The position numbers and the translations under genes are program-made. A DNA stretch of 3,308 nt, taken from assembly GCF_003334765.1 (NCBI RefSeq), contig NZ_QOWT01000070.1. One strand, 5' to 3'. The DNA is from Escherichia coli (GTDB lineage: Bacteria > Pseudomonadota > Gammaproteobacteria > Enterobacterales > Enterobacteriaceae). The notes under the pieces are model-generated. The model had not been told where the DNA came from and searched no databases. It saw only the letters and a program-made list of their open reading frames with translations. This document shows, piece after piece, positions 395 through 835 of this stretch. Each line of letters opens with the position of its first letter. The stretch's first letter is position 1.

Positions 395-440
395 GCACCC
401 GCCGCTATTATATCGCTCTCTTTAACCCATTTTGTTTTAT
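395..440 (-). promoter_or_regulatory. Putative promoter of the mokC/hokC mRNA
   Basis: Minus strand reads GCGATATAATAGCGG with a perfect TATAAT at plus 412-407, about 100 nt upstream of the mokC start, a leader length consistent with hok-family mRNAs. No convincing -35 element. Confidence 0.3.
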
Positions 441-729
441 CGATTCTAATCCTGAAGACGCCTCGCATTTTTGTGGCGTAATTTTTTAATGATTTAATTA
501 TTTAACTTTAATTTATCTCTTCATCGCAATTATTGACGACAAGCTGGATTATTTTTGAAATATTGGCCTAACAAGCATCGCCGACTGACAACAAATTAAT
601 TATTACTTTTCCTAATTAATCCCTCAGGAATCCTCACCTTAAGCTATGATTATCTAGGCTTAGGGTCACTCGTGAGCGCTTACAGCCGTCAAAAACGCAT
701 CTCACCGCTGATGGCGCAAATTCTTCAAT

Positions 730-835
730 AGCTCGTAAAAAACGAATTATTCCTACACTATAATCTGGTTTTAACGATGATTCGTGCGGGGTAAAATAGT
801 AAAAACGATCTATTCACCTGAAAGAGAAATAAAAA
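730..835 (+). promoter_or_regulatory. nhaA promoter/operator region (NhaR-dependent promoter and RBS)
   Basis: -10-like hexamers TATAAT (759-764) and TAAAAT (792-797). A dyad ATAG-N10-CTAT (796-813) resembles the T-N11-A type box bound by LysR-family regulators. Purine-rich AAGAGAAA (822-829) sits just upstream of the GTG start. nhaA is known to be activated by NhaR binding upstream; exact site assignment is not possible from sequence alone. Confidence 0.4.

Follow-up and report, generated by a model that had tools for sequence, protein, structure and literature searches.

Gene content and identity of the locus

The window, meaning the whole stretch of 3,308 nucleotides that was analyzed, carries in order an IS186 end, hokC/mokC on the minus strand, sokC, nhaA, nhaR, and an IS1 end. 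It was identified as the IS186–hokC/sokC–nhaA–nhaR–IS1 region of Escherichia coli, with 99.9% identity to MG1655. Window positions 53-3142 were aligned with MG1655 16706-19795 at 99.94% identity with two mismatches, and MG1655 coordinates were converted into window positions by subtracting 16653. The LysR-family regulator gene nhaR is linked to its target nhaA. The sole Rfam match on the window is hok/sok (sok) at 248-400 on the minus strand with 118 bits, and it ends exactly at 400, the hokC mRNA start. The MG1655 annotation holds no CDS within 430-835. The coordinates of all features are collected in Table 1.

The two ends of the window are arranged differently from MG1655. The IS186 end at 1-90 is inverted relative to MG1655, and within the end region 3143-3308 IS1 starts at 3231, which is 88 bp further from nhaR than in MG1655. 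The strain of the window is therefore related to MG1655 but different from it. Among the matches listed, strain 300709 is a 100% match for 380-900.

Table 1 Features of the window, with mapped transcript starts given by their window and MG1655 positions.
Feature	Position	Strand	Details
sokC start	299 (MG1655 16952)	+	Cappable-seq score 12.4
Unexplained start	366 (MG1655 17019)	+	Cappable-seq score 9.4
hokC/mokC mRNA promoter	401-440	−	-10 TATAAT is the complement of 407-412; start 400
AT-rich flank to the right of the hokC toxin-antitoxin module	430-517		Not an nhaA element
Junction segment with distal promoter	518-589	+	-35 TTGACG 533-538; -10 TGAAAT 556-561; start 571
Distal promoter start	571 (MG1655 17224)	+	Cappable-seq score 171, enrichment 7.4
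Escherichia-specific segment with P2	590-730	+	-10 CTATGAT 644-650
P2 start	658 (MG1655 17311)	+	Cappable-seq score 30
NhaR site 1, recognition site (predicted)	733-745		TCGTAAAAAACGA; palindrome TCG-N7-CGA, equal to T-N11-A
NhaR site 2, activation site (predicted)	759-777		TATAATCTGGTTTTAACGA; includes TATAAT; overlaps weak P1 -35 TTTTAA 769-774
Weak start	773 (MG1655 17426)	+	Cappable-seq score 4.4, enrichment 6.1
P1 core promoter	792-805	+	-10 TAAAAT 792-797
NhaR site 3 (predicted)	796-815		TAGTAAAAACGATCTATTC; overlaps P1 -10 and start; contains the ATAG-N10-CTAT dyad
P1 start	801 (MG1655 17454)	+	Cappable-seq score 9.6
Ribosome-binding region AAGAGA and nhaA GTG (836)	822-838	+	AGAGA block kept in the 15-sequence alignment
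nhaA ORF	836-2002	+	GTG start 836; RefSeq annotation; NCBIfam NhaA model, 679 bits
Internal nhaR promoter start	1372 (MG1655 18025)	+	Cappable-seq score 209
nhaR ORF	2062-2967		ATG 2062; RefSeq; NCBIfam NhaR equivalog NF008284, 603 bits (cut-off 219)

Promoter-like motifs and their chance frequency

A preliminary description of this DNA, made from the sequence alone, had presented 430-835 as a long AT-rich nhaA leader with promoter-like hexamers and a LysR-type dyad. The motifs lie exactly where it placed them: TTGACG at 533-538, a 17-nt spacer, TGAAAT at 556-561, TATAAT at 759-764, TAAAAT at 792-797, ATAG-N10-CTAT at 796-813, and the nhaA GTG at 836. The AT-richness is also real, with 35% G+C in 430-835 against about 50% in the flanking genes.

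The chance frequency of these motifs was measured by 2000 dinucleotide-preserving shuffles of 430-835. Seven hexamers with at least 5/6 match to TATAAT were observed against 6.0 expected (P=0.40), 13 TAnnnT against 11.8, one -35/-10 pair against 0.5 (P=0.38), and four 4-bp dyads with N10 spacing against 2.4 (P=0.24). A consensus promoter scan picked up none of the proposed promoters and none of the experimentally supported ones. With all motif classes at P 0.24–0.40 against the shuffles, the caveat of the preliminary description, that the real hexamers cannot be chosen from sequence alone, is borne out. The motif observation is accurate but statistically undistinctive. The reading built on it is partly supported; it is right in outline, wrong on the dyad, and it missed P2.

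Transcript starts upstream of nhaA

Mapped transcript starts were taken from Cappable-seq of MG1655 grown in M9 glucose to mid-log phase (PMC4782308). Starts were found downstream of all three proposed -10 hexamers, at 571, 773 (weak), and 801. The start at 571 is the strongest upstream of nhaA, and two datasets obtained by different methods agree on it. The second, independent 5'-end dataset lists 17224(+) with 17 reads, and the sequence printed upstream of this position includes TTGACG and TGAAAT (PMC3415461 Table S1). The same table places the hokC mRNA start at 17053(-), which is window 400. Control of nhaA by NhaR through more than one promoter, as had been proposed, is established (PMC6307784), although P2 was absent from the proposed promoters.

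The start at 366, located just 3' of sokC, is in antisense orientation to the hokC mRNA at its 5' end. A Rho-dependent read-through region was reported at 17039, window position about 386 (PMC7815308). A Klebsiella pneumoniae start that had been assigned to nhaA was rejected, as its position falls within dnaJ. No nhaA entry was found in the SMRT-Cappable-seq supplements.

Mosaic origin of the DNA between hokC and nhaA

Comparison with other genomes divides 430-835 into four segments: the hokC flank (430–517), the junction (518–589), an Escherichia-only segment (590–730), and an ancestral segment (731–835). Upstream of nhaA, homology to the window sets in at about 731 in Citrobacter, at about 759 in Kluyvera and Pluralibacter, and at 596 in E. 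albertii. Where dnaJ was found in the other Enterobacteriaceae genera, it lies directly before nhaA with a gap of about 130-250 bp. The stretch linked to nhaA in all Escherichia is only about 245 bp long (590-835), and the stretch linked to it across genera only about 105 bp (731-835). The proposed leader of about 450 bp is indeed non-coding and AT-rich, but it was drawn too generously, as its left edge adjoins the minus-strand hokC promoter and 430-517 is part of the hokC module.

The proximal part was matched in all 5426 complete E. coli genomes, while most of 380-900 was covered in only 4115. In the remaining E. coli and in E. albertii, an island of ompK, a sulfatase gene, and a hypothetical gene abuts nhaA, and homology to the window starts from 590-596. 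The ompK-sulfatase island was found in B2-type E. coli and in E. albertii. In strain HB37, which carries the island, the match to window 75-517 (94% identity) is located upstream of ompK, at a distance of about 4 kb from nhaA. The hokC flank is thus physically linked to hokC/sokC independently of nhaA, from which the 4-kb island separates it.

In island-carrying strains, the last gene of the island ends with a stop codon at the position of 597-599. The last few codons of this gene and its stop persist in K-12-type strains (cf. loci L002, L003, L005, and L084). The retention of these codons suggests that deletion of the island produced the K-12 arrangement. Volatile modules flanking nhaAR have been described (PMC4182557), and the mosaic found here agrees with that description.

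Within the hokC flank, a terminator-like hairpin on the plus strand was observed at 458-479 (ACGCC...GGCGU, dG -8.8 kcal/mol), followed by a U-run at 480-487 (AAUUUUUU). No 3' end is listed at the 458-487 hairpin in the Term-seq data (PMC7815308).

Taken as a whole, 430-835 is very probably the known E. coli nhaA control region, assembled from four pieces of different age. The regulation of nhaA by NhaR, H-NS, and RpoS is already known and is well-established biology. The value of the present analysis is a corrected map, which gives the hexamers that have mapped starts and the true position of the conserved NhaR box. On this map, ancestral nhaA control DNA makes up less than a third of the leader that had been described.

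The distal promoter in the junction segment

The junction segment contains sigma-70-type hexamers, TTGACG-17-TGAAAT, together with a mapped 5'-triphosphate start at 571. The register is ambiguous, since 571 is 10 nt after TGAAAT and 7 nt after an extended -10 element, TGaAATATT (556-564). Positions 512-595, which contain the junction, are present as a single, unannotated copy in 4139 of 5426 E. coli genomes (76%), and a second copy was found in none of the 5426. Neither E. albertii nor the other genera compared gave a match to 518-589, and HB37 lacks it. No significant similarity of these 72 bp to the sulfatase island or to the island flanks was found that would indicate their origin. The hexamers are intact in BL21 and O157; in some strains, the variants TTGTCG, TGAAGT, and a 2-bp spacer deletion occur.

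The RNA starting at 571 holds 23 C and 10 G in its first 90 nt. The fold of RNA 571-850 is no better than that of shuffles (z = -1.18), and Rfam gives no leader RNA element, its only match being hok/sok. The only leader ORF of at least 10 codons, a small ORF at 672-731 (19 aa), was rejected because its GTG is lost in O157, KE47, and another E. coli. The start 17224 was linked to nhaA by proximity only (PMC3415461). No 3' end appears between 17007 and 17501 in the Term-seq data, and bicyclomycin raised the reads upstream of nhaA codon 5 six-fold, from 149 to 927 (PMC7815308).

Two explanations of the 571 start were weighed. It stands at even chances that the start reflects irrelevant pervasive transcription from an accidental promoter in the AT-rich junction, with Rho or H-NS ending the RNA before nhaA. 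The distribution of the promoter fits this explanation: it lies within a 72-bp segment unmatched in the other genera compared, the surrounding 512-595 is missing in 24% of E. coli genomes, and the hexamers differ among strains. The RNA fits as well, being C-rich and without a conserved ORF or stable structure. Rho-dependent read-through is documented upstream in the spacer, the bicyclomycin response points in the same direction, and the classical studies described P1 and P2 only (PMC6307784). However, accidental transcription accounts less well for a 5'-triphosphate end that was detected by two methods and is the strongest one ahead of nhaA in mid-log M9 cells, and for the lack of a discrete 3' end between 17007 and 17501 in Term-seq; moreover, the spacer alone is bound by the sigma-70 holoenzyme (PMC3946193). 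More tentatively, with a chance of somewhat under one in three in our estimation, 571 may be a lineage-specific third nhaA promoter with a 265-nt leader, or a source of interference for P2 and P1. If either were true, K-12-type strains and B2 or island-type strains would differ in their basal expression of nhaA.

A reproducible RNA 3' end was also observed by Term-seq on the plus strand at MG1655 17501/17504 (window 848-851), 12-15 nt into nhaA. It was scored as not Rho-dependent and could be a pause or processing site right after the start codon.

P2 and the Escherichia-only segment

The P2 -10 element CTATGAT has a C at -13, which is favored by sigma-S. The sequence CTATGATTA at 644-652 is invariant in seven Escherichia sequences, including E. 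albertii. The curated starts, which we take to be at about 805 for P1 and at 664 for P2, are 4-6 nt off the Cappable-seq positions 801 and 658. A "172 bp promoter region" has been described, and the P2 start is 664 if that region begins at the P2 start (PMC4182557). P2 was reported to be sigma-S dependent and independent of NhaR and H-NS (PMC6307784). A peak of RpoS-holoenzyme SELEX lies at 17732, within nhaA.

The P1 core promoter and the predicted NhaR sites

For a phylogenetic footprint, 80 nhaA loci were retrieved, and 15 sequences of at least six genera were aligned. Three groups of invariant or near-invariant positions were found: TCG 733-735, AAA, and CGA 743-745; then ATAATCT 760-766, TTTT 769-772, and CGA 775-777; and finally TAnnATnG 792-799, CGA 806-808, and A812. 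These groups form three repeats of an A/T run followed by CGA. The 5-mer AACGA recurs at 741, 773, and 804, 32 and 31 bp apart, and no other 5-mer in the region forms a phased triplet. Any phased 5-mer triplet arises in about 2% of shuffles, and one with at least two G/C in 0.3%. A repeat finder also identified AAAAACGAnnTATTC as a direct repeat at 738-752 and 801-815.

Site 1 has its center at 739, which is 62-66 bp upstream of the P1 start (801-805), and a T-N11-A box is thus found near -65. A search of the 80 loci for TCG-N7-CGA ahead of the nhaA match start gave 43 raw matches, three of them doubtful, leaving about 40 loci with the pattern, against a background rate of 0.126 per 260 bp. 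Its distance to the nhaA match start is 78-181 bp, mostly 98-145, and the loci include Yersinia, Serratia, Morganella, Xenorhabdus, Vibrio, Shewanella, and Aeromonas. A second CGA lies exactly +42 bp from the start of the box in 27 loci. A third, at +73, was found in only 10 loci, from Escherichia to Enterobacter. At site 2, the conserved block ATAAnCTGnTTTTnnCGA overlaps the -35, and from this we infer NhaR binding to an activation site. The half-sites within sites 2 and 3 were likewise assigned from conservation.

TAAAAT at 792–797 keeps its position in 12 loci of at least six genera. Counted from the start codon, TAnnAT stands at -44/-45 in 10 of the 12 and at -39/-41 in the other two. This fixed position supports TAAAAT as the P1 -10, and the preliminary description was right about this hexamer.

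The NhaR footprint presumably extends from -120 to -14 relative to the GTG. The NhaR contacts, as we take them to be, are G-92, G-60, G-29, and A-24, equivalent to 744, 776, 807, and 812, and all four are conserved here. P1 is described as induced by Na+ and dependent on NhaR (PMC6307784), four NhaR sites have been quoted from EcoCyc (PMC4182557), and DNA of PnhaA was shifted by NhaR in gel assays (PMC10157491).

Two side observations concern these sites. At 768 the window has G, in contrast to the A of MG1655, BL21, O157, other E. coli, and E. albertii. This G sits between the conserved TCT and TTTTAACGA of site 2, adjoining the P1 -35. The change is probably neutral, because the same alignment column also differs between genera. 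In relatives from Aeromonas, Shewanella, and Vibrio (loci L037-L073), the box is followed about 36-40 bp on by AAnCGAWTWTTC and then by a -10-like element, CTACACT or TAGACT; the geometry of the second site is unlike that in Enterobacterales.

The involvement of H-NS, which had been considered plausible from AT-richness, agrees with published results. A genetic effect of hns on P1 has been reported (PMC6307784), and in genomic SELEX the spacer between sokC and nhaA was flagged for H-NS and bound the sigma-70 holoenzyme alone (PMC3946193). The H-NS nucleation motif is not enriched in the region, with 39 occurrences observed against 33 expected.

Other readings of the TATAAT hexamer and the dyad

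TATAAT at 759-764 had been proposed as a promoter hexamer, and it could be read as the -10 of a genuine extra proximal nhaA promoter with a start near 773. The hexamer matches the consensus perfectly, ATAAT is near-invariant in the closest genera, and Cappable-seq places a start at 17426 (773) with an enrichment of 6.1. However, this is the weakest of the four starts (score 4.4) and lies 9 nt past the hexamer, and no convincing -35 is found upstream. The last T is kept in Escherichia, Kluyvera, and a few others; elsewhere it is C, A, or G. Other Enterobacterales thus have TATAAC, TATAAA, TATAAG, or ATAAAA, in which the essential last T is gone, but the following CTGnTTTTnnCGA is retained, and the element is conserved as ATAA(n)CT. 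An extra promoter at this position is therefore unlikely in our judgment. Because the last T is lost while CTGnTTTTnnCGA is kept, the hexamer is probably not a -10, and a role within NhaR site 2 or as an upstream element fits it better.

It is very improbable that NhaR controls nhaA through ATAG-N10-CTAT at 796-813 as its primary LysR-type recognition site: the dyad overlaps the conserved CGA 806-808 and A812, falls within what is presumably the NhaR-protected region, and allows the in-silico NhaR consensus TCgaAAAAatCtA to be aligned on 800-812 (PMC6307784), but it is complete only in E. coli and E. albertii, T797 and A812 are fourteen bases apart (T-N14-A) and not the eleven of T-N11-A, and it is positioned on the start site, not near -65. 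C810 is not conserved, since the three Citrobacter all have G there, as do Kluyvera and two other genera, and the arm is unrecognizable in the rest of the alignment; the ATAG arm is explained by the P1 -10 (TAnnATnG), N10 dyads are not enriched in the region over chance (four against 2.4 expected), and the third site is missing from most Enterobacterales that retain sites 1 and 2.

Proposed mechanism

The ancestral core 731-835 would act as a classical LysR-type activator promoter, with its regulator NhaR encoded just downstream of nhaA. NhaR would recognize the three in-phase repeats of an A/T run and CGA, 31-32 bp apart: site 1 (733-745) about 65 bp before the start, site 2 (about 760-777) on the weak -35, and site 3 (797-815) on the -10 and on the start (801-805). 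Following the pattern of other LysR-type regulators, Na+ would alter the NhaR contacts at the promoter-proximal sites and let RNA polymerase use P1, which would also counteract H-NS on the AT-rich DNA. The Escherichia-only segment 590-730 would add P2 (CTATGAT, start 658-664), which is reported to be sigma-S dependent and NhaR-independent. Junction 518-589, found only where the hokC module abuts nhaA, would add a constitutive sigma-70 promoter that starts transcription at 571, and its transcript would head towards nhaA through a C-rich, G-poor untranslated stretch. The remaining piece, 430-517, belongs to the hokC toxin-antitoxin module and not to nhaA.

Comparison with known systems

The region was compared with the nhaAR control region of E. 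coli K-12. It is the same locus, and the starts and the roles of NhaR, sigma-S, and H-NS are as published (PMC6307784, PMC4182557, PMC4782308). The differences are G instead of A at 768 in site 2 and the other arrangement of IS186 and IS1 at the ends, and the 571 start stands outside the published two-promoter description (PMC6307784). RegulonDB has used the nhaA control region as an illustration of conserved promoters and NhaR sites.

At the promoter of pgaABCD (pgaA), another NhaR target, TCGAAAAATCCGA compares with TCGTAAAAAACGA of nhaA, the two having TCG-N7-CGA with an A-rich center in common. The osmC promoter has only a looser dyad, CCG-N9-CGG.

The targets of BenM/CatM or OxyR are three-site LysR-type promoters, with a recognition site near -65 and two activation subsites. 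The nhaA promoter resembles them in having a T-N11-A box about 65 bp upstream, a second site at the -35, and a third at -10/+1, all on one helix face. Unlike in those systems, nhaR lies downstream in the same operon and not divergently upstream, induction is by an ion (Na+), and the third site occurs in only a subset of Enterobacteriaceae.

Observations within and downstream of nhaA

Strong internal starts within nhaA were observed at 18025 (window 1372), with a sigma-38-like -10 element TCTACACTAA, and at 18553 (window 1900, score 18). The YdeO study mentions them as promoters specific to nhaR. Between nhaA and nhaR, a hairpin GGGGAGCC...GGCTCCCT with a T-run lies at 2017-2043 on the plus strand, and a Term-seq 3' end was mapped at 18696 (window 2043). 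The nhaA-nhaR intergenic region is also the reported place of CsrA control of nhaR translation.
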